41,471 nt of DNA from Dehalococcoidia bacterium (lineage in GTDB: Bacteria; Chloroflexota; Dehalococcoidia; DSTF01; JALHUB01), in contig DAOUEO010000140.1 of the NCBI GenBank assembly GCA_034430455.1, forward strand, positions 1-41,471. The letters are read 5' to 3'. A model generated the notes under the pieces. The model did not search any database. It was not told where the DNA came from and saw only the letters and a list, made by a program, of their open reading frames with translations. Below are positions 27,807 through 39,922 of this stretch, one piece after another; position 1 is the first letter of the stretch; the number at the start of each line of letters is the position of its first letter. A program made the translations under genes and the position numbers.

Positions 27807-28295
27807 GTGAAGTGCGCAACACACCCGAACGTCGAGACAGAGCTGGCTTGCAGCCGCTGCGGCAAGCCGATCTGCCCGCGTTGCCTGGTGTACACGCCGG
27901 TCGGCACCCGCTGTCGCGACTGCGCCCAGGTGCGACGCCTGCCAACCTATCAGGTCCCAGCATCATACCTGCTGCGCGGGATCGGCGCGGCGGCGGCGGC
28001 GGGAGCGGCGACCGGCGGGCTGTGGGCTCTCCTACTGCCTCAGAGGGCCGGCGCCTACGGCTTCTACGTCCTCTTCCTGGCGCTGGGGATAGGCTACGCC
28101 GTCGGCGAGGCGGTGAGCTGGGCGACCAACCGGAAGCGGGGCGCGGTGCTCCAGGGGATAGCGGCGGCGGGGGTCGTCCTCGCTTACCTTGTGCACAACC
28201 TGGCAGCGGGGGTGGGCATCATCCCCCGCGACGACATCTACGGCTACGTGATGACGGGCATCGCCATCGTCATAGCGATAGGGCGGCTCCGCTGA
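27807..28295 (+). CDS. Membrane protein with N-terminal B-box-like zinc ribbon
   Basis: CATHP...CSRCGKPICPRCLV....GTRCRDC has eight Cys/His ligand positions, followed by about four hydrophobic helices. GTG start. Divergent from the TasA-like operon. Confidence 0.65.
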   Translation: MKCATHPNVETELACSRCGKPICPRCLVYTPVGTRCRDCAQVRRLPTYQVPASYLLRGIGAAAAAGAATGGLWALLLPQRAGAYGFYVLFLALGIGYAVGEAVSWATNRKRGAVLQGIAAAGVVLAYLVHNLAAGVGIIPRDDIYGYVMTGIAIVIAIGRLR

Positions 28296-28743: not shown

Positions 28744-29307
28744 CTACTCTTTGGGAGGAGCGTTAGGGTTATCCACCACGTCCTCACGATCCACCGCCAG
28801 GGCACCGTCCTTCCATATGTAGTGGACCTTCTTGATCCGGCTGGGGAAACCGGGGGTATCGCCGGCGCTGTAGACCGGCAGCACCTCCACCAGGTGGTGG
28901 TCCTCAAGCTGGACCTGCACCGATCCCTCCGCCGGCACCTCCGACAGCAGGGCGACGAGCTCGCCGCCGCGATAGCCGAGGACGATGAGGGCGAGGTTGC
29001 CGGCCGTTCCTCCCGAGGAGATAGGGACTATCGCCTCCTCCCGGCCGTCGCCGGTGAGGTCGGCGTAGAGGACGTCCTCCTGGCTTACTTCTCCTCCCAG
29101 ACGCTGGAGGAGGGCCTCGACGTCGGCCTGCTGGGCGAGGTCGACTTCTCGTATGTCCAGCGGCGCCGGGGAGGGCGTGACCCCAGACGTGGCGGCGGGG
29201 GTGGGAGTCTCCTTCTTGTCGTGACCATCACGGCAGGCGACGGCGAGGGCGGCAAGCACAGCCACCGCGATGAAGGCTATCCAACAGAGGAGCGTCGCTT
29301 TTCGCAC
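28744..29307 (-). CDS. Hypothetical lipoprotein
   Basis: Signal peptide with lipobox LAVAC, a Pro/Thr linker, then a globular domain. No family recognised. Confidence 0.7.
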   Translation of the reverse strand: MRKATLLCWIAFIAVAVLAALAVACRDGHDKKETPTPAATSGVTPSPAPLDIREVDLAQQADVEALLQRLGGEVSQEDVLYADLTGDGREEAIVPISSGGTAGNLALIVLGYRGGELVALLSEVPAEGSVQVQLEDHHLVEVLPVYSAGDTPGFPSRIKKVHYIWKDGALAVDREDVVDNPNAPPKE

Positions 29308-29422: not shown

Positions 29423-29499
29423 TGGCGCGCTCGGCGGGATTCGAACCCACGGCCTCAGCCTCCGCAGGGCTGCGCTCTATCCGACTGAGCTACGAGCGC
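29423..29499 (-). tRNA. tRNA-Arg, anticodon GCG as read
   Basis: The reverse complement folds as GCGCTCG-TA-GCTC-AGTCGGATA-GAGC-G-CAGCC-CTGCGGA-GGCTG-AGGCC-GTGGG-TTCGAAT-CCCGC-CGAGCGC-G-CCA. The cloverleaf is complete, CCA is encoded and A20 is present. Confidence 0.85.
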
Positions 29500-29580
29500 G
29501 CGCTATCCACACATAAGACTGGGGATGAGACGCGGGGTGCGGGGTCCGGCGCGCCATCCCCCGTCCGGGGTCATCCTGGT

Positions 29581-29666
29581 TGGTGCCGAAGGTGGGATTT
29601 GAACCCACACGCCCTTACGGACACTACGCCCTGAACGTAGCGCGTCTGCCATTCCGCCACTTCGGC
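29581..29666 (-). tRNA. tRNA-Leu (CAG)
   Basis: Reverse complement GCCGAAG-TG-GCGGAATGGCAGACGC-...CTACG-TTCAGGG-CGTAG, a long variable arm, TGTGGG-TTCAAAT-CCCAC, CTTCGGC-A-CCA. Confidence 0.9.
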
Positions 29667-29700
29667 GAACCGCGACCGTTTGCAGGCTCAAGCGCAAGGA

Positions 29701-29777
29701 TGGTGGGCGGTACAGGGCTCGAACCTGTGACCTCTTCCGTGTGAAGGAAGCGCTCATACCAACTGAGCTAACCGCCC
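29701..29777 (-). tRNA. tRNA-Val (CAC)
   Basis: Reverse complement GGGCGGT-TA-GCTC-AGTTGGTAT-GAGC-G-CTTCC-TTCACAC-GGAAG-AGGTC-ACAGG-TTCGAGC-CCTGT-ACCGCCC-A-CCA. Confidence 0.9.
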
Positions 29778-31129: not shown

Positions 31130-31345
31130 GGGTTTTTCCTTCCGGGGGACGGGGTTTCTGGAAGCGCAGGCGGGCGTAGCTGATACCGCAGTATATCAGG
31201 GCCAAGATAAAGAAAGCAACGGCTTTCACAAAGCGCAGTGTTAAGACCGCGTTAAGTGATCAGCTCTCAGCGAGTGAGGTCAAGCGAGAAACGACCCTCG
31301 CCCTCTTGGGGAGCGGGGCCGTCGCGAAGAGTTGCTCTCCTAGAT

Positions 31346-31420
31346 TGGTGGCAGCGGAGGGATTTGAACCCACGACCAAGGGCTTATGAGTCCCCTGCTC
31401 TACCACTGAGCTACGCTGCC
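31346..31420 (-). tRNA. tRNA with CAU anticodon (elongator Met or lysidine-type Ile2; identity not resolved)
   Basis: Reverse complement GGCAGCG-TA-GCTC-AGTGGTA-GAGC-A-GGGGA-CTCATAA-GCCCT-TGGTC-GTGGG-TTCAAAT-CCCTC-CGCTGCC-A-CCA. There is one A-G mismatch at the base of the anticodon stem and one U-U mismatch in the T stem. Confidence 0.75.
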
Positions 31421-31525
31421 GCCGTGCCGGATCATAGCAAAGGGGCTCCGGGGCTGTCAACGAAGTCGCCAACGCTGCTACAATGGGCGACGGTACAACA
31501 AGAGCTTGGCCCTGGAGTAACCTCG

Positions 31526-32800
31526 ATGACCTGCGGCACCACGGCCGAGATGGAGACCATCGCTTACGCCTGCCATGAGCCCTACGGCTTCTGGCTGGAC
31601 AGCGCCCTCGTCGACCCCCAGTGGGGCCGGACTTCGCTCTACGGAGAAGACCCCTTCCTAGTGCTGCGGTCGAAGGGGAAGACGGTCGAGGTTGCGGAGC
31701 GCGGCGGCACGAGCCGTCATCAGGCCAGCCCATTCGAGGTGCTCCGCGAACTCCTGCGGGAGAGGCGGTCGCCGGAGGGGGGCGTCGTCGGCTACTTCGC
31801 CTATGAGCTCAAGCAGCACATCGAGGATCTCCCGCAGCGGGCGGAGGACGACCTGGCCCTCCCCGACTGCTATCTCTGTTTCTACGACCGGCTCGTGCGC
31901 TACGATCCCCGGCTGACGGCGCCCCCGGCCACCCCCGCCGACGGCGCGCGGACCGCCCGCCCCAAAATGGACGGTCTTCGATCAACCTTCACGCCGGAGG
32001 CCTACCGTCGCGCCGTCGAGCGGACGAAGCGCTACATCACCGCCGGCGACATCTACCAGGTAAACCTCTCGCAGAGGTTCGCGGCGCCGCTGCGGCAGAG
32101 CCCCTTCGATCTCTACTCGAGGCTGCGCCAGGTCAATCCCGCCCCCTTCGCCGCCTTCTTGAACCTCTCTGAGGGGCAGGTGTTGAGCGCATCGCCGGAG
32201 CGATTCCTCCACTTCGACCCGACGAGCAGGCGGGTGCAGACACGCCCGATCAAGGGGACGCGCCCCCGCGGCGGGACCCCCGAACGGGACCGGGAGCTGG
32301 CGCGGGAGTTGCTCAGCAGCGAGAAAGACCTCGCCGAGAACGTGATGATCGTCGACGTGGAGCGAAACGACCTCGGCCGCGTGGCGGAGATCGGCTCGGT
32401 GCGGGTGCCCCACCTGGCGGCGCTGGAGCGCTTCGCCACCGTATTCCACCTGACGTCGACGGTGGAGGCCCGTCTGCGCGACGGCTGCGACGTGGTGGAC
32501 CTGCTGCTCGCCACCTTCCCCAGCGGCTCGATCACGGGCGCGCCGAAGATACGGGCGATGGAGATCATCGACGAGCTGGAGCCGACGGCCCGCAGCGTCT
32601 ACACGGGCGCCATCGGCTACATCGGCTTCGACGGCTCGCTCGACCTGAACATCGCCATCCGCACCATGCTGGTCAAGGGCGATACCGTCTACTTCCAGGC
32701 CGGCGGCGGGATTGTCGACGACTCCGACCCGGAGCTGGAGTACCAGGAGACGCTGGACAAGGCGAGCGCCCTGGCGCGGGCGGTGCTGGCTGACGAATAG
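31526..32800 (+). CDS. pabB: Aminodeoxychorismate synthase component I (chorismate-binding enzyme)
   Basis: Chorismate-utilising enzyme motifs (DIYQVNLSQRF, SASPERFL, PIKGTRPRG, NVMIVDVERNDL, FPSGSITGAPK, YTGAIGY, AGGGIV.DS.P..E..E). Followed by a class IV aminotransferase-fold gene. The track ORF start 31256 runs through the tRNA; ATG 31526 is the first plausible start. Confidence 0.8.
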   Translation: MTCGTTAEMETIAYACHEPYGFWLDSALVDPQWGRTSLYGEDPFLVLRSKGKTVEVAERGGTSRHQASPFEVLRELLRERRSPEGGVVGYFAYELKQHIEDLPQRAEDDLALPDCYLCFYDRLVRYDPRLTAPPATPADGARTARPKMDGLRSTFTPEAYRRAVERTKRYITAGDIYQVNLSQRFAAPLRQSPFDLYSRLRQVNPAPFAAFLNLSEGQVLSASPERFLHFDPTSRRVQTRPIKGTRPRGGTPERDRELARELLSSEKDLAENVMIVDVERNDLGRVAEIGSVRVPHLAALERFATVFHLTSTVEARLRDGCDVVDLLLATFPSGSITGAPKIRAMEIIDELEPTARSVYTGAIGYIGFDGSLDLNIAIRTMLVKGDTVYFQAGGGIVDDSDPELEYQETLDKASALARAVLADE

Positions 32801-33648: not shown

Positions 33649-33700
33649 GGCAGGCCGCCAACGCCGGTACGGGGTGTCTCATTGGGCCGCTGGCGTTGGC

Positions 33701-34312
33701 CTAGAACGCGTAGTCCGTCTTCCAGATCTCCCAGACCCTGCCGGCGGTGCGAATAGTCTCCTTCTCCTCTTTGAGAGTAGGCCTCCCCGGCTGCCAGCCG
33801 GAGGGGGTCAACTCGCCGGTGGAGCGGACGTGCTGGAAGGCCTTGAGCTGCCGAATGAGCTCAGTTACGTTGCGACCCACGGGCGGCGTCAGTATCTCCG
33901 CTGCCTGGATGATGCCGTCAGGGTCAATTATGAAGCGGCCACGCACGTTGACGCCGAGCTCCTCGTTGTACACCCCGTACAGGGATCCGATCTTGCCTCC
34001 GGGGTCGGCCAGCATGGCGTAGGGGACACCCCCCTCCACCATCTTCGAAAGCTCCACCTCCTGCCAGACCTTGTGGGAGTAGACACTGTCCACACTCACC
34101 GAGAGCACCTCCGCCTCCATCGCCCTCAACTCGCCATACTTGACGGCAACTGCCGCCAACTCGGTCGGTCAGACGCAGGTGAAGTCAGCGGGATAGAAGC
34201 AGAGGATCACCCACTTCTTCTTGAGGTTGGAGAGTTTGACCTCCTGGACCTTGCCATTCCAGTAGGCCTTGGCTGTGAAGTCTGGTGCTTGCTTGCCAAC
34301 GATCGGCGTCAT
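33701..34312 (-). CDS. Peroxiredoxin (AhpC/Prx1 type) with in-frame TGA at the peroxidatic position; candidate selenocysteine-containing Prx
   Basis: ATG 34312 (RBS AAGGAGGG) reads MTPIVGKQAPDFTAKAYWNGKVQEVKLSNLKKKWVILCFYPADFTCV. TGA at 34171-34169 follows, then PTELAAVAVKYGE... continues in the same frame to the stop at 33701. The ORF track reports only the part after the TGA (33701..34159). Confidence 0.75.
34140..34159 (-). promoter_or_regulatory. SECIS-like hairpin downstream of the in-frame UGA
   Basis: The minus-strand RNA forms UUGGCGGC-AGUU-GCCGUCAA, an 8-bp stem (one G-U pair) with a 4-nt loop containing G. The stem starts 9 nt after UGA. Confidence 0.5.
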
Positions 34313-34368
34313 TGCGCCCTCCTTTCGCTAGGCCGGTCGTACGTGCGGCCCCTGCCAGAATGGAAATG

Positions 34369-34397
34369 ATCGTAGCAAGGGGGTTCTGGCCTGTCAA
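34369..34397 (-). promoter_or_regulatory. Candidate peroxiredoxin promoter
   Basis: On the minus strand: TTGACA (34397-34392), 17-bp spacer, TACGAT (34374-34369), about 55 nt upstream of the ATG. Confidence 0.45.
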
Positions 34398-34439
34398 CCA
34401 GAGGAGAGAATACAGAGCGAACGCCTCTGCCTCACCTCC

Positions 34440-34506
34440 CGCTTGAGGGGCCGACTTCGCGCGGTCTACAATGGAATCGCGATGACGAAGACACGCTTCG
34501 CCGCCC
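34440..34506 (+). repeat. Direct repeat copy A: duplicated uvrC promoter plus first 8 codons (uvrC' remnant)
   Basis: 66 of 67 positions are identical to 35380-35446 (single t/c difference at 34457/35397). It contains TTGAGG-18 bp-TACAAT and ATGACGAAGACACGCTTCGCCGCC. Degenerate similarity (ctgcccg, cccggcg) continues to about 34530. Confidence 0.9.
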
Positions 34507-34569
34507 TGCCCGAGCCGATTCCGCCCGGCGGCGGGTTGGGCCTCAGCGACCGGAAAGGACCAAAGGAAC

Positions 34570-35310
34570 ATGAAACTTCTTAGCTGGCAGGCTGCTCTTG
34601 GACTGGCTCTACTTGCGTTGTCGGTGCTGGTGTACGCGCTGCACTACGCGATATTCAGAGACTCGCATCACATCTTCATCTACCTGATCGGCGATGTCGC
34701 TTTCGTGTTCATCGAGGTTCTCCTGGTCACTCTGATAATCCATGAGTTGCTCAATGTCAGAGAAAAGCAGAGCCGGCTGGAGAAGTTGAATATGGTCATA
34801 GGCGCCTTCTTCAGCGAACTTGGAACGGAGCTGCTGGCCTACTTCTCGGACCTCGACCCCAAGCTGAACCAGATCAGGGAGCAGCTCATCGTGGACAACG
34901 AGTGGTCGAATGAGGAGTTCGCCAGCGTCAGTCAGCGGCTGAGGAAATACGACTACGGCGTGGAGATCGAAACAGCGAACTGGGGAAATCTGAGCAGCTA
35001 CCTCATTGAGAAAAGGGGCTTCCTGCTGAGGCTGCTGGAGAACCCGACTCTGCTGGAACATGAGTCCTTCACAGAGCTCCTTCGCGCCGTCTTCCACCTG
35101 ACTGAGGAGCTGGCAAGAAGGGAGAACCTCGGGGAGCTGCCCGACACCGACCGTAGACATCTTGCCAACGACATCACGAGGGCATACGTCCTGCTCGTGC
35201 GACAGTGGCTGGACTATATGCACCACCTGAGAGACAACTACCCCTACCTCTTCTCCCTCGCCATGAGGACGAACCCATTTGACCAACAAGCGTCGGTGAT
35301 AGTGCGTTAG
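34570..35310 (+). CDS. Hypothetical two-TM membrane protein with helical cytoplasmic domain; compositionally foreign
   Basis: 246-aa ORF starting at ATG with AAGGA 4 nt upstream. Two N-terminal hydrophobic helices are followed by a charged helical domain. Hand-counted GC is 53% and 45% in two 60-nt samples, against 72% in the adjacent uvrC sample. Confidence 0.7.
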   Translation: MKLLSWQAALGLALLALSVLVYALHYAIFRDSHHIFIYLIGDVAFVFIEVLLVTLIIHELLNVREKQSRLEKLNMVIGAFFSELGTELLAYFSDLDPKLNQIREQLIVDNEWSNEEFASVSQRLRKYDYGVEIETANWGNLSSYLIEKRGFLLRLLENPTLLEHESFTELLRAVFHLTEELARRENLGELPDTDRRHLANDITRAYVLLVRQWLDYMHHLRDNYPYLFSLAMRTNPFDQQASVIVR

Positions 35311-35379
35311 TGCGTTTGAGCGCAAGAGACAGCCCGCCGGTGCGCGCGGCAGCCCCCACGGCTGGCGAAGGGCCCCGCT

Positions 35380-35446
35380 CGCTTGAGGGGCCGACTCCGC
35401 GCGGTCTACAATGGAATCGCGATGACGAAGACACGCTTCGCCGCCC
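35380..35446 (+). repeat. Direct repeat copy B: functional uvrC promoter and start
   Basis: Partner of 34440-34506. TTGAGG 35383-35388, TACAAT 35407-35412, uvrC ATG at 35422. Confidence 0.9.
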
Positions 35447-37269
35447 AGCTCGCCGCCCTGCCCGCTCGACCCGGCGTCTACATCATGCGCGACGGCGAGG
35501 GCCGCGTCATCTACGTCGGGAAGGCGGCCAACCTGCACAGCCGGGTGCGCTCCTACTTCGGCTCGCCCCGCAGCATGGAGCCGAAGACGCGGGCGCTCGC
35601 GTCCGCCGTCGCCGATTTCGAGTACATCGTCACCAATACGAGCCAGGAGGCGCTGCACCTGGAGGCGACCCTGGTCAAGCGCCATCAGCCCCTCTTCAAC
35701 GTCCGCCTCAAGGACGACAAGCACTATCCCTACCTCCGGATCGACGTGCAGAACTCCTGGCCGCGGGCCGAGATCACCCGCCGCGTGGCCGACGACGGCG
35801 CCCGCTACTTCGGGCCCTACGCGAGCGCGGGGTCGGTGCGCAAGGTGCTCGATCTCATCAACCGGCTCTTCCCCTGCCGCGCCTGCACGAAGACGATAAG
35901 CGGCCAGGACCGGCGCCCCTGCCTCGATTTCTACCTCCACCGCTGCCTCGCTCCCTGCGCCTCCTACTGCAGCAAGGAGGAGTACGACGAGATGATCCGG
36001 CAGGCGATCCTCTTCCTCGAGGGGCGGACGGACACGGTCGTGCGGGAGATCAGAGCGCAGATGGAGGCGGCATCGGAGAGCCTCCAGTTCGAGCGGGCGG
36101 CGCGGCTGCGCGACCAGCTCCAGGCGATCGAAAGGGTCACCGAGCGGCAGGTGACGGCCTACGCCACGCCCAGCGATGAGGATGTCTTCGGCCTCGCCCG
36201 CGCCGACGGGGATGTGTGGGCGCAGGTGCTGTTCATCCGGGGGACGAAGATGACCGGCGGCGACCACTTCGCGCTGGACGGCGCAGGCGACGAGCCCGAC
36301 GCCGAGGTGATGAACAGCTTCCTGAAGCAGTTCTACGAGTCGGCGACCTACGTGCCGCGGAGAGTGCTGCTGCCGGTCGCGGTCCCCGAGCAGGCGCTGA
36401 TCGAGGAGTGGCTGTCGGAGCGGCGCGGCGGCCGCGTGAGCCTGCTCGTCCCCCGGCGCGGGAACAAGCGGCATCTGGTGGCGATGGCCGCCGACAACGC
36501 CCGCGAGGCGCTGGAGATGATGCGGGTGAAGTGGCTGGCGGACAGCGGCAAGACGCAGCGGGCGCTGGCCGAGCTGCAAGAAGAGCTGAACCTGCCGTCG
36601 CTGCCGCGGCGGATCGAGTGCTACGACATCTCGGACATCAGCGGGACGGCCGCCGTGGGGAGCATGGTGGTGTTCAGCGACGGCCATCCGCGGCGGGCGG
36701 AGTACCGTCGCTTCCGGATCAAGACGGTGGAAGGGGCGAACGACGTGGCGATGATGGCGGAGGTGCTGCGGCGTCGCTTCAAGCGGGCGGCGCGGCGCGA
36801 GCCCGGCGGAGAGGAGCCGGACGAGAAGGGGCAGGCCTGGGCTGCCCTGCCCGACCTGGTGCTGATCGACGGCGGGAGGCCGCAGCTCAACGCCGCCCTC
36901 GACGCGCTTCGGGAGATGGAGGTGCCGTTCCTGCCGGCGGCGGGGCTGGCGAAGCAGCAGGAGGAGCTGTATGTGAAGGACGTGGCGGAGCCGATCGTCC
37001 TGCCGCGGACGTCGCCGGCGCTGTACCTGCTGCAGCGGGTGCGGGACGAGGCGCACCGCTTCGCTATCACATACCATCGCAAGGTGCGGGAGAAGGCGGG
37101 GACGAGGTCGGCGCTCGACTCGATACCGGGCGTGGGGCCGAAGCGGAAGCGGGCGCTGCTGCGGAAGTTCGGGTCCGTGAAGAGGATACGGGAGGCGGCG
37201 GTGGACGAGATCGCGGCGACGGTGGGGTTCACGCGCTCGCTGGCCGAAAGGGTCAAGGAGTACCTGTAG
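35422..37269 (+). CDS. uvrC: Excinuclease ABC subunit C
   Basis: GIY-YIG start (PGVYIMRDGEGRVIYVGKAANL..RV.SYF), a UVR domain (QFERAARLRDQLQAI), an endonuclease domain and a C-terminal (HhH)2 (IPGVGPKRKRALLRKFGS). ATG 35422 lies only about 10 nt after the TACAAT box. Confidence 0.9.
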   Translation: MTKTRFAAQLAALPARPGVYIMRDGEGRVIYVGKAANLHSRVRSYFGSPRSMEPKTRALASAVADFEYIVTNTSQEALHLEATLVKRHQPLFNVRLKDDKHYPYLRIDVQNSWPRAEITRRVADDGARYFGPYASAGSVRKVLDLINRLFPCRACTKTISGQDRRPCLDFYLHRCLAPCASYCSKEEYDEMIRQAILFLEGRTDTVVREIRAQMEAASESLQFERAARLRDQLQAIERVTERQVTAYATPSDEDVFGLARADGDVWAQVLFIRGTKMTGGDHFALDGAGDEPDAEVMNSFLKQFYESATYVPRRVLLPVAVPEQALIEEWLSERRGGRVSLLVPRRGNKRHLVAMAADNAREALEMMRVKWLADSGKTQRALAELQEELNLPSLPRRIECYDISDISGTAAVGSMVVFSDGHPRRAEYRRFRIKTVEGANDVAMMAEVLRRRFKRAARREPGGEEPDEKGQAWAALPDLVLIDGGRPQLNAALDALREMEVPFLPAAGLAKQQEELYVKDVAEPIVLPRTSPALYLLQRVRDEAHRFAITYHRKVREKAGTRSALDSIPGVGPKRKRALLRKFGSVKRIREAAVDEIAATVGFTRSLAERVKEYL

Positions 37270-38992: not shown

Positions 38993-39922
38993 GTGATGGT
39001 CATGGTCACGGACGACCACGTCGGTCAGTTCCTCCACTATTTGTCCGTCGAGAAAGGCTCCTCCAGCAACACGATTGCCGCCTATCGAAACGACCTCTCT
39101 CAGTTCCGCACCTACCTCCAGGCCGTCACCAACGTCAACGGCGATTCGCCGCGCTGGGACACGGTCGACCGAACCCTCATCATCGAGTACGTCTCGGAGC
39201 TGAAACGCCGGCGCTACGCGGAGGCAACCGTTGCCCGGAAGATAGCCGCCCTGAAGGCATTTTTCGCTTTCCTCCATCAGGTCGAAGGGATTGTAAGGCA
39301 GAACCCCACCGAGAACGTAGGGTTCCGGGTCCCGAAGTCCCTTCCCAAGCCGCTGTCGATCCGCGAGGTGGACGAGCTCCTGGAGCAGCCGGCCCGTCTC
39401 ATCACACCGGAGGCGAAACGGGACAAGGCGATGCTGGAGTTGCTCTATGCCACCGGCCTGCGGGTTACCGAGCTGGTGTCGCTGGACGTGAACCACCTTC
39501 ACATGAACCGGCGCGCGCCCCACATCCGCTGCGTGGGAAAGGGCTCCAAGGAGCGCACGATCCCTATCCACAGGGACGCGCTCCAGGCGCTGGAGGAGTA
39601 CCTGGACGACGGCCGGCCGCGTCTGGTGCGGAACAAGCACCAGGCGGCCCTCTTCGTCAACCGGCGGGGGGAGCGTCTGACGCGGCAGGGCTTCTGGCTG
39701 ATCCTGAAGGGCTACGCAAAGGCCGCCGCAATCGCCAAGCCGGTTACCCCGCACACCTTGCGCCACAGCTTCGCTACCCATATGCTGAAAGGGGGAGCTC
39801 CGTTACGTAACGTTCAGGAACTCCTGGGCCATGCCAACATGTCGACCACCCAGGTCTACACCAAGCTCAGCGACGACATGGTGCGTCAGGTGTACGAGAA
39901 GGCCCATCCGCGAGCGAAGTAG
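38993..39922 (+). CDS. xerD: Tyrosine site-specific recombinase, XerD/XerC type
   Basis: N-terminal SAM-like domain (FLHYLSVEKGSSSNTIAAYRNDL), ATGLRVTELV, and a catalytic tail HTLRHSFATHMLKGGAPLRNVQELLGHANMSTTQVYT. An extended -10 TGgTAAGAT lies at 38950-38958 upstream. Confidence 0.85.
   Translation: MMVMVTDDHVGQFLHYLSVEKGSSSNTIAAYRNDLSQFRTYLQAVTNVNGDSPRWDTVDRTLIIEYVSELKRRRYAEATVARKIAALKAFFAFLHQVEGIVRQNPTENVGFRVPKSLPKPLSIREVDELLEQPARLITPEAKRDKAMLELLYATGLRVTELVSLDVNHLHMNRRAPHIRCVGKGSKERTIPIHRDALQALEEYLDDGRPRLVRNKHQAALFVNRRGERLTRQGFWLILKGYAKAAAIAKPVTPHTLRHSFATHMLKGGAPLRNVQELLGHANMSTTQVYTKLSDDMVRQVYEKAHPRAK

Follow-up and report, generated by a model that had tools for sequence, protein, structure and literature searches.

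The stretch of DNA analyzed here (the window; 41,471 nucleotides of contig DAOUEO010000140.1, GenBank assembly GCA_034430455.1, Dehalococcoidia bacterium) carries an intact uvrC gene whose promoter and first codons occur twice: once in place, and once on the far side of an 867-bp segment that holds a single gene of the MJ1433 family. The host belongs to a clade of soil metagenome-assembled genomes (MAGs) that are labeled either Chloroflexia or Dehalococcoidia. From left to right, the locus consists of a peroxiredoxin gene on the minus strand (prx, 33701–34312; AhpC/TSA type with a 1-Cys C-terminal domain, matching Pfam AhpC-TSA and 1-cysPrx_C); an intergenic flank (34313–34439) with a divergent prx promoter on the minus strand (34397–34369, TTGACA-17-TACGAT); and then, all on the plus strand, a first copy of the uvrC 5′ segment (copy A, 34440–34512), the insert (34513–35379), a second copy of the 5′ segment (copy B, 35380–35464) and uvrC itself (35422–37269), the reading frame of which opens within copy B. 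The UvrC protein (615 amino acids) is full-length, has all the expected domains (GIY-YIG, UVR, two RNase H-like endonuclease domains and HhH) and is 88–95% identical to full-length relatives. We consider it highly likely that this arrangement records a real and fairly recent duplicative insertion into the 5′ end of uvrC, a judgment that adds together the two single-event routes weighed below and leaves their rivals out.

The first-pass annotation of this DNA had described segments 34440–34506 and 35380–35446 as direct repeats far beyond chance, each with a promoter and the first eight uvrC codons, flanking a single gene. All of this holds: the segments are identical at 66 of 67 positions at an offset of 940 nt, and the 67-mer of 35380–35446 has only these two matches in the window at up to three mismatches, with none in 100 shuffles. 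The true extent of the repeat is greater, 73 nt in copy A and 85 nt in copy B. After TTCGCCGCC, copy A is missing 12 nt (cagctcgccgcc), beyond which the match resumes with CTGCCCG; the missing nucleotides sit between two TCGCCGCC repeats in uvrC and are present in every relative compared. Copy B is thus of ancestral length, and the loss in copy A is a slippage deletion that came later than the insertion. The same annotation had taken copy A for a degenerating uvrC fragment, and here its observations divide: the 12-nt gap followed by CTGCCCG is genuine, whereas the further similarity it saw beyond 34512 (cccggcg) is what chance would give (an equal or better score in 883 of 1000 shuffles), and the homology of copy A stops at a sharp breakpoint (34512) with no gradual fading. 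Three features tell the copies apart: a single-nucleotide polymorphism (SNP), with T at position 34457 of copy A and C at 35397 of copy B; the 12-nt indel; and unique flanks. The T of copy A is the allele of a relative with an empty site (L095, below), and the C in the left part of copy B is the allele of a second relative (L096). Neither joint has clear microhomology.

Both copies comprise a σ70-like promoter (TTGAGG-18-TACAAT), an ATG and the codons for MTKTRFAA. In copy A, the −35 element lies at 34443–34448, the −10 element at 34467–34472 and the start codon at 34482, followed by uvrC codons 1–8, the deletion and CTGCCCG; in copy B the corresponding positions are 35383–35388, 35407–35412 and 35422, codons 1–14 are complete, and length and sequence type match those of four relatives (L095, L096, L097, and L002). 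A promoter scan of the region returned three σ70-like sites against 0.3 expected, the third being the divergent prx promoter. The ATG follows the −10 element by 9 nt and no Shine-Dalgarno sequence precedes uvrC; the promoter geometry is kept in 13 relatives (TTGAGN, a spacer of 17–18 nt, TACAAT and a start codon about 9–12 nt further on). These features suggest that the uvrC mRNA of this group may be leaderless or nearly so. Since uvrC is probably leaderless, the duplicated 85 bp would constitute a complete expression unit, and both copies of the promoter are predicted to be active.

Copy B spans the uvrC promoter, and copy A lies 58–130 nt upstream of the ATG of the inserted gene. A transcript started by copy A should therefore open with a putative chimeric upstream open reading frame (uORF) of 33 codons (MTKTRFAALPEPIPPGGGLGLSDRKGPKEHETS; 34482–34583, plus strand), with the new gene behind it; the chimera joins uvrC codons 1–8, a Leu-Pro pair that corresponds to uvrC codons 13–14 and novel sequence, and it stops 14 nt inside the inserted gene in another frame. 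No intrinsic terminator or unusually stable structure was detected on the plus strand between the new gene and copy B, that is, in the 3′ flank of the insert (35311–35379; 69 nt, GC content about 0.75; z = +1.4), so transcription could continue into uvrC, which may also receive read-through from the new gene.

The remainder of the 867-bp insert is a 57-nt leader (34513–34569; GC content 0.68), in which GGAAAGGA, resembling a Shine-Dalgarno site, precedes the ATG by about 10 nt, and the gene itself (34570–35310), the only open reading frame between the copies. Both flanks occur once in the window; they showed no homology to uvrC, to the locus of the nearest homolog (L090) or to other loci, and matched only the same locus in two other assemblies (L001 and L098). 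The encoded protein of 246 amino acids is assigned to the MJ1433 family (MJ1433_N, PF27246, and MJ1433_C, PF27232) by precomputed Pfam hits for the identical protein P0001 and for all 120 listed homologs, with matches to both models over the full length. It is predicted to have two N-terminal transmembrane helices and a helical cytoplasmic C-terminal domain. This is a large family, with at least 8000 clusters (90% identity level) similar to the query and 1337 clusters (50% identity level) that score E ≤ 0.001; the best 120 clusters are 69–79% identical to the query (the identical protein excluded) and nearly all exactly 246 amino acids long, and members occur in MAGs labeled Anaerolineae, Cloacimonadota, and Deltaproteobacteria. 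The inserted gene is intact and looks functional, because the window copy retains every invariant position of a 27-sequence alignment in which it is itself included. Searches for a function of the protein in a 2025 copy of Pfam (without PF27246 and PF27232), NCBIfam, PADLOC, and PHROGs gave nothing significant (PHROGs sub-threshold only, E 0.07–1); a PDB sequence search gave only a coiled-coil chance match, for an all-helical AlphaFold model (pLDDT, predicted local distance difference test, 80), Foldseek returned no PDB structure at E ≤ 0.001, and a literature search on MJ1433 found no account of the family.

The filled arrangement recurs in three further independent assemblies, four with the window. 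One from NCBI (L001, GCA_964625965.1) has both junctions and is 99.79% identical over 11.5 kb, with 24 SNPs that all lie outside 34137–36033. Of two contigs from the Joint Genome Institute (JGI), L098 contains the insert, copy B and uvrC, and with them the right junction (99.6% identity), and L099 contains prx, copy A and the insert, and with them the left junction (99.92% identity). These recurrences answer the objection, raised in the first-pass annotation itself, that the repeat might be an assembly artefact; a collapsed or mis-joined repeat is excluded on the sequences compared, since the two copies are distinguishable by SNP, indel and unique flanks. Among the four assemblies there is one SNP in 34188–36515 (2.3 kb), and elsewhere SNPs fall in short tracts, such as 27989–28004, 28816–28875, 32539–32629, and 37158–37183. 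Such a distribution resembles a mosaic produced by recombination, in which the haplotype at the insertion is young, and the near-absence of SNPs around the insert would fit a recent origin, the numbers being small. A scan of metagenome DNA for intermediate lineages with a 24-mer from the prx intergenic region returned one contig, which is another filled site.

The comparison with relatives that the earlier annotation had proposed yields the unoccupied state. The UvrC proteins closest to that of the window are 95%, 93%, 93%, 91%, and 88% identical. In the closest (L095, 95%), positions 1–124 correspond to window positions 34316–34439 at 91% identity and lead without interruption into a single promoter and an intact 5′ end of uvrC in which the 12 nt are present; by its sequence, L095 represents the unoccupied site. 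The inserted gene is likewise absent from L096 and L097 (UvrC 93%) and from L002 (88%), where an aminotransferase IV gene (at4) is followed by a GNAT acetyltransferase gene on the minus strand, a single promoter and uvrC, with neither prx nor an MJ1433-like gene. It would appear that prx took the place of the GNAT gene before L095 and the window diverged, and that the MJ1433-like gene entered later, in the branch of the window only. No other filled uvrC site was found among 80 genome loci.

The slot between at4 and the uvrC promoter is itself variable (window 33649–34439 compared with L096:1341–1953, L097, and L002:5344–5958). It is occupied by the GNAT gene in the relatives at 88–93% and by prx, a probable selenocysteine (Sec) peroxiredoxin, in the window and in L095 (L095 being covered from the intergenic region on); in L090, a GDT1 gene follows at4. 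The slot variants and the 3′ flank of the insert all end at the same nucleotide before the −35 element, immediately before CGCTTGAGG.

Base composition says less about the origin of the gene than it first seemed. The low GC content on which the first-pass annotation had relied is real (0.551, against 0.697 for uvrC and 0.670 for the window), but as a sign of foreign origin it is weak evidence. GC content at third codon positions (GC3) is 0.765 in the inserted gene, against 0.88–0.94 in native neighbors and 0.83 in prx, so most of the deficit comes from amino-acid composition, which is conserved in the family: the MJ1433 gene is less GC-rich than its surroundings in 7 of 7 genomes examined. Homologs in low-GC hosts have a GC3 of 0.43–0.51, and that of L090 has 0.794. 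The nearest homolog, P0002 (79% amino-acid and 80% nucleotide identity), is the one in L090, a high-GC contig of another Chloroflexota, where it lies downstream of pabB and at4 (72% and 68% identity with the window genes), with mscL, not uvrC, as the next gene; the two loci are homologous only within the open reading frame, up to its ends. The donor was probably another high-GC Chloroflexota and not a distant low-GC organism, because the nearest homolog occurs in a high-GC member of that phylum and GC3 is high.

The product, read as left flank, target (73 of 85 bp), 867-bp insert, target (85 bp) and the rest of uvrC, supports the earlier proposal of an insertion within the early codons of uvrC that left the gene whole by duplication and set the newcomer behind a copy of its promoter; the breakpoint falls after about codon 13. 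The starting point would have been the order still seen in L095, with prx on the minus strand, the intergenic region, the uvrC promoter and uvrC. Into this, the 867-bp segment would have entered after uvrC codon 13 or 14, so that the 85-bp stretch from the −35 element to codon 14 came to stand on both sides. The route we favor, to which we would give about an even chance in the form stated here, is a single Campbell-type insertion-duplication: a related Chloroflexota in which an MJ1433-like gene already lay directly upstream of the uvrC promoter would have supplied a fragment of about 0.95 kb (the insert plus the segment from promoter to codon 14), the fragment would have circularized, and the circle would have integrated by one homologous crossover within the 85-bp promoter and 5′ segment. 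Copy B would then have kept uvrC fully functional, copy A would drive the chimeric uORF followed by the new gene, which has a Shine-Dalgarno-like site of its own, and copy A would afterwards have lost 12 nt by slippage.

Three observations modestly favor this route over break repair or a template switch, none of them strong. The joint between the 3′ flank of the insert and the promoter falls at the nucleotide shared by the other upstream cassettes, as expected if this joint already existed in the donor and as a coincidence for a random nick; copy A has T and the left part of copy B has C, as would be left by a crossover to the right of the SNP; and the nearest homolog lies in the same pabB–at4 neighborhood of a relative. 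Several points weigh on the other side. Neither the protein collection nor one metagenome DNA scan yielded a donor-type contig (the gene, at 90% identity or more, beside a uvrC promoter with no copy A), the closest homolog being the 79% one that is followed by mscL in L090. The SNP argument concerns a single position, the shared boundary could come from selection for an intact −35 element, 85 bp is a short substrate for RecA, and a staggered break or a replication template switch gives the same product. L095 is in principle open to being read as a revertant, since a recombination event between the copies would regenerate precisely the empty site. That the promoters are active, that translation is leaderless and that the new gene is expressed are predictions from sequence.

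The other single-event route, possible but clearly the less probable of the two, needs no homology to the incoming DNA. A foreign 867-bp fragment could have been captured at a pair of nicks, one on each strand and about 85 nt apart (or at a resected double-strand break), with fill-in duplicating the 85-nt overhang; alternatively, a nascent strand could have jumped to foreign DNA at codon 14 and back at the −35 element. Either event would leave exactly target, insert and target, the junctions sharp and element genes absent; no donor in which the gene lies beside uvrC was found; and homology-free illegitimate duplication joints that capture promoters have been documented experimentally (PMC11111574). 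The joints, however, lack clear microhomology, and the left edge of the duplication coincides with the conserved promoter edge that also bounds the other upstream cassettes, which would be fortuitous for a random nick, though selection would sort the outcomes in favor of an intact copy B. An 85-nt target duplication also far exceeds what known transposases produce, which is 2–15 bp.

It is unlikely that the gene, as an old resident, came in with prx, had a promoter segment of 73–85 bp copied in front of it later, and was lost from L095-like relatives by recombination between the copies. Such recombination would rebuild the empty site precisely, the GC3 of the gene is largely host-like, its L090 homolog lies in the same pabB–at4 neighborhood, a Sec-peroxiredoxin and an MJ1433 homolog co-occur in an oxidative-stress cluster of L091, and duplicated "mobile" promoters before unrelated genes are common (PMC3575422). 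But this history needs at least three events instead of one. Only one substitution and one indel separate the copies, against a difference of about 8% between L095 and the window, and the four filled-site assemblies are nearly identical around the insert. It also leaves the 13 uvrC codons of copy A without a purpose in a promoter copy, and the relatives of the GNAT type (UvrC 88–93%) lack the gene as well.

A more speculative reading of the shared boundary, and an improbable one, is that the left edge of the uvrC promoter (immediately before CGCTTGAGG) is a reusable docking site at which single-gene cassettes (GNAT, Sec-peroxiredoxin, MJ1433-like) are swapped or added by a trans-acting, site-directed process with the 85-bp unit as attachment sequence. 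If true, it would amount to an integron-like cassette slot on a leaderless housekeeping promoter in Chloroflexota. In a weaker variant, the MJ1433-like gene and the Sec-peroxiredoxin could be a functional oxidative-stress pair in the course of assembly under DNA-repair and stress promoters.

Slightly less probable still, very unlikely and largely refuted by the results, is the remnant or satellite of an integrative element, in which the copies would be the attL and attR sites of a recombinase that targets the uvrC 5′ end, the element carrying a replacement promoter and N-terminus and being mobilized in trans or having lost its integrase. Integrase-mediated insertion typically leaves direct repeats by which the target gene is restored, and here direct repeats flank the insert with uvrC intact; three different sequences abut the same promoter nucleotide, and a tyrosine recombinase gene (38993–39922) lies 3.5 kb downstream. 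That recombinase, however, scores above the curated cut-off as the housekeeping XerD and has a positional counterpart in the insert-free L096. The 940 bp contain no integrase, excisionase or inverted repeats, there were no PADLOC or mobile-element hits and only sub-threshold PHROGs matches, and six other MJ1433 loci have no flanking repeats. The last result (0 of 6) also led us to reject the MJ1433 gene as itself mobile with long target duplications. An insertion sequence (IS) or transposon was rejected too: as the earlier annotation had observed, the insert contains no integrase, transposase or terminal inverted repeats; no transposase match was obtained in Pfam, NCBIfam, PADLOC or PHROGs, the insert ends lack inverted repeats, the duplication measures 85 bp (73 after the deletion) and the insert is single-copy.

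Two explanations are weaker again. Tandem-duplication capture of the Cit+ type, in which a silent gene upstream of uvrC would be activated by a uvrC promoter copy placed before a second copy of the gene, is well documented as a mechanism (PMC11111574; PMC3575422) but has next to no probability here: it predicts two gene copies where one is present, and the joint between the prx intergenic region and copy A equals the empty-site joint of L095, so the first gene copy would have to have been removed with single-base precision. Least credible of all is a chimeric or mis-joined assembly, for although the window comes from a MAG and the L001 contig ends inside uvrC, four assemblies from different records have identical junction sequence and the copies are distinguishable.

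Among known systems, Campbell insertion-duplication by a suicide plasmid or specialized transducing DNA offers the same topology, with the homology segment as a direct repeat on both sides; it likewise leaves the target gene intact when the homology is the 5′ end with its promoter, and it can be reversed by recombination between the repeats. In the window, a direct repeat stands on both sides of the insert, and one copy is present at the empty site. Unlike suicide-plasmid events, the incoming DNA here would be a natural promoter-and-gene fragment of about 0.95 kb with no replicon or vector functions and with 85 bp of homology, and both circle and donor are postulated. The direct target repeats also resemble transposon target-site duplications and att repeats; transposons and integrative elements differ in that this insert has no transposase, integrase or terminal inverted repeats and is single-copy, and in that its repeat is about 6–40 times longer than a transposon target-site duplication.

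A second parallel is the duplication of promoters. Putative mobile promoters in the sense of Matus-Garcia, Nijveen and van Passel (2012), as summarized in PMC3575422, are sequences with at least 80% identity over at least 50 nt that precede two non-homologous coding sequences in one genome; copies A and B are of this kind, at 66 of 67 positions. Promoter capture is exemplified by rnk-citT in Cit+, and activation of transferred genes by duplication is a further case (PMC11111574). As in these cases, a near-identical native promoter segment of more than 50 nt precedes an unrelated, horizontally acquired gene with no IS element. In contrast to Cit+ capture, the gene is present once, with no tandem duplication, and unlike published mobile promoters, the duplicated unit takes in the beginning of the uvrC coding sequence (the start codon with 13 codons) and creates a chimeric uORF. 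Here, capture of the promoter seems to have come about through the insertion itself, as a by-product. Homology-facilitated illegitimate recombination and transformation-induced merodiploidy are known for one-sided anchor integration and for duplications that preserve an intact copy of the gene that was hit (PMC3240628; PMC3784515). The former normally yields insertion-deletions, unlike the anchor duplication seen here, and pneumococcal merodiploids span 100–900 kb between IS-derived repeats, compared with 85 bp (PMC3240628; PMC3784515). The case thus combines two documented phenomena, promoter capture or mobile promoters and the integration of foreign DNA through one-sided or short homology.

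The peroxiredoxin gene to the left has an in-frame TGA (34171–34169) at the position of the peroxidatic Cys (YPADFTCV*PTELAA), and 12 nt after the UGA lies a hairpin of 8 bp (UUGGCGGC-AGUU-GCCGUCAA) that resembles a selenocysteine insertion sequence (SECIS); its product is probably a selenocysteine peroxiredoxin, judging by these signals. Gene callers split the gene, L001 listing products of 47 and 139 amino acids. No tRNA-Sec or sel genes were seen in the window. An AhpC-type peroxiredoxin in L091 (805–1527), 62% identical to that of the window, also has a TGA at the Cys codon (YPGDFTFV*PTELT). An Rfam scan of the window found four tRNAs and nothing else: on the minus strand, a cluster of tRNA-Arg(GCG), tRNA-Leu(CAG), and tRNA-Val(CAC) and a separate tRNA-Met (29423–29777 and 31346–31420). 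A mechanically called open reading frame (31256–32800) crosses the tRNA-Met, so the true start of this chorismate-binding (pabB-like) gene is further downstream, at about 31526. The at4 gene of L002 (4490–5340), the nearest relative in the genome collection, aligns as three pieces in different frames, for which frameshifts in a long-read assembly or a pseudogene are possible explanations.

Members of the MJ1433 family, from MAGs of different assigned phyla, are unusually uniform; the 27-sequence alignment has more than 100 invariant positions, including H25, D31, H33, H34, D42, E49, and H58 in or near the two transmembrane helices. In L091, an unrelated low-GC contig, a family gene lies 3.5 kb from the TGA-containing peroxiredoxin in a cluster with a flavodiiron protein, a hybrid-cluster protein and a desulfoferrodoxin, and in L094 the gene order is desulfoferrodoxin, MJ1433, rubrerythrin; gene context suggests that the family may be linked to oxygen or metal stress. 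In two lineages (L082:3231–5741 and L084–L089), the MJ1433 gene directly follows a PF09818 "ABC_ATPase" (MRB1590-like) gene, with a 4-nt overlap in one lineage and 54 nt between the genes in the other. This arrangement points to a conserved two-gene unit, with PF09818 as a second possible functional partner.

The locus reveals no new class of element, but it provides a natural before-and-after pair, the empty site of L095 and the filled site of the window, that should be useful for teaching and for surveys of promoter capture. It shows how a gene can be gained inside the start of a useful gene without the loss of that gene, a promoter being obtained in the same step. The family of the inserted gene, large and tightly conserved membrane proteins whose neighbors elsewhere are oxygen-detoxification genes and the PF09818 ATPase, may merit a study of its own. 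For uncultivated soil Chloroflexota, in which mechanisms of gene gain are little documented, the case adds a concrete example of promoter capture or of a mobile promoter. In a leaderless gene, less than 50 bp accommodate the promoter, the transcription start and the start codon, so a very short duplication is enough, and leaderless genes may be unusually tolerant, and useful, landing sites.

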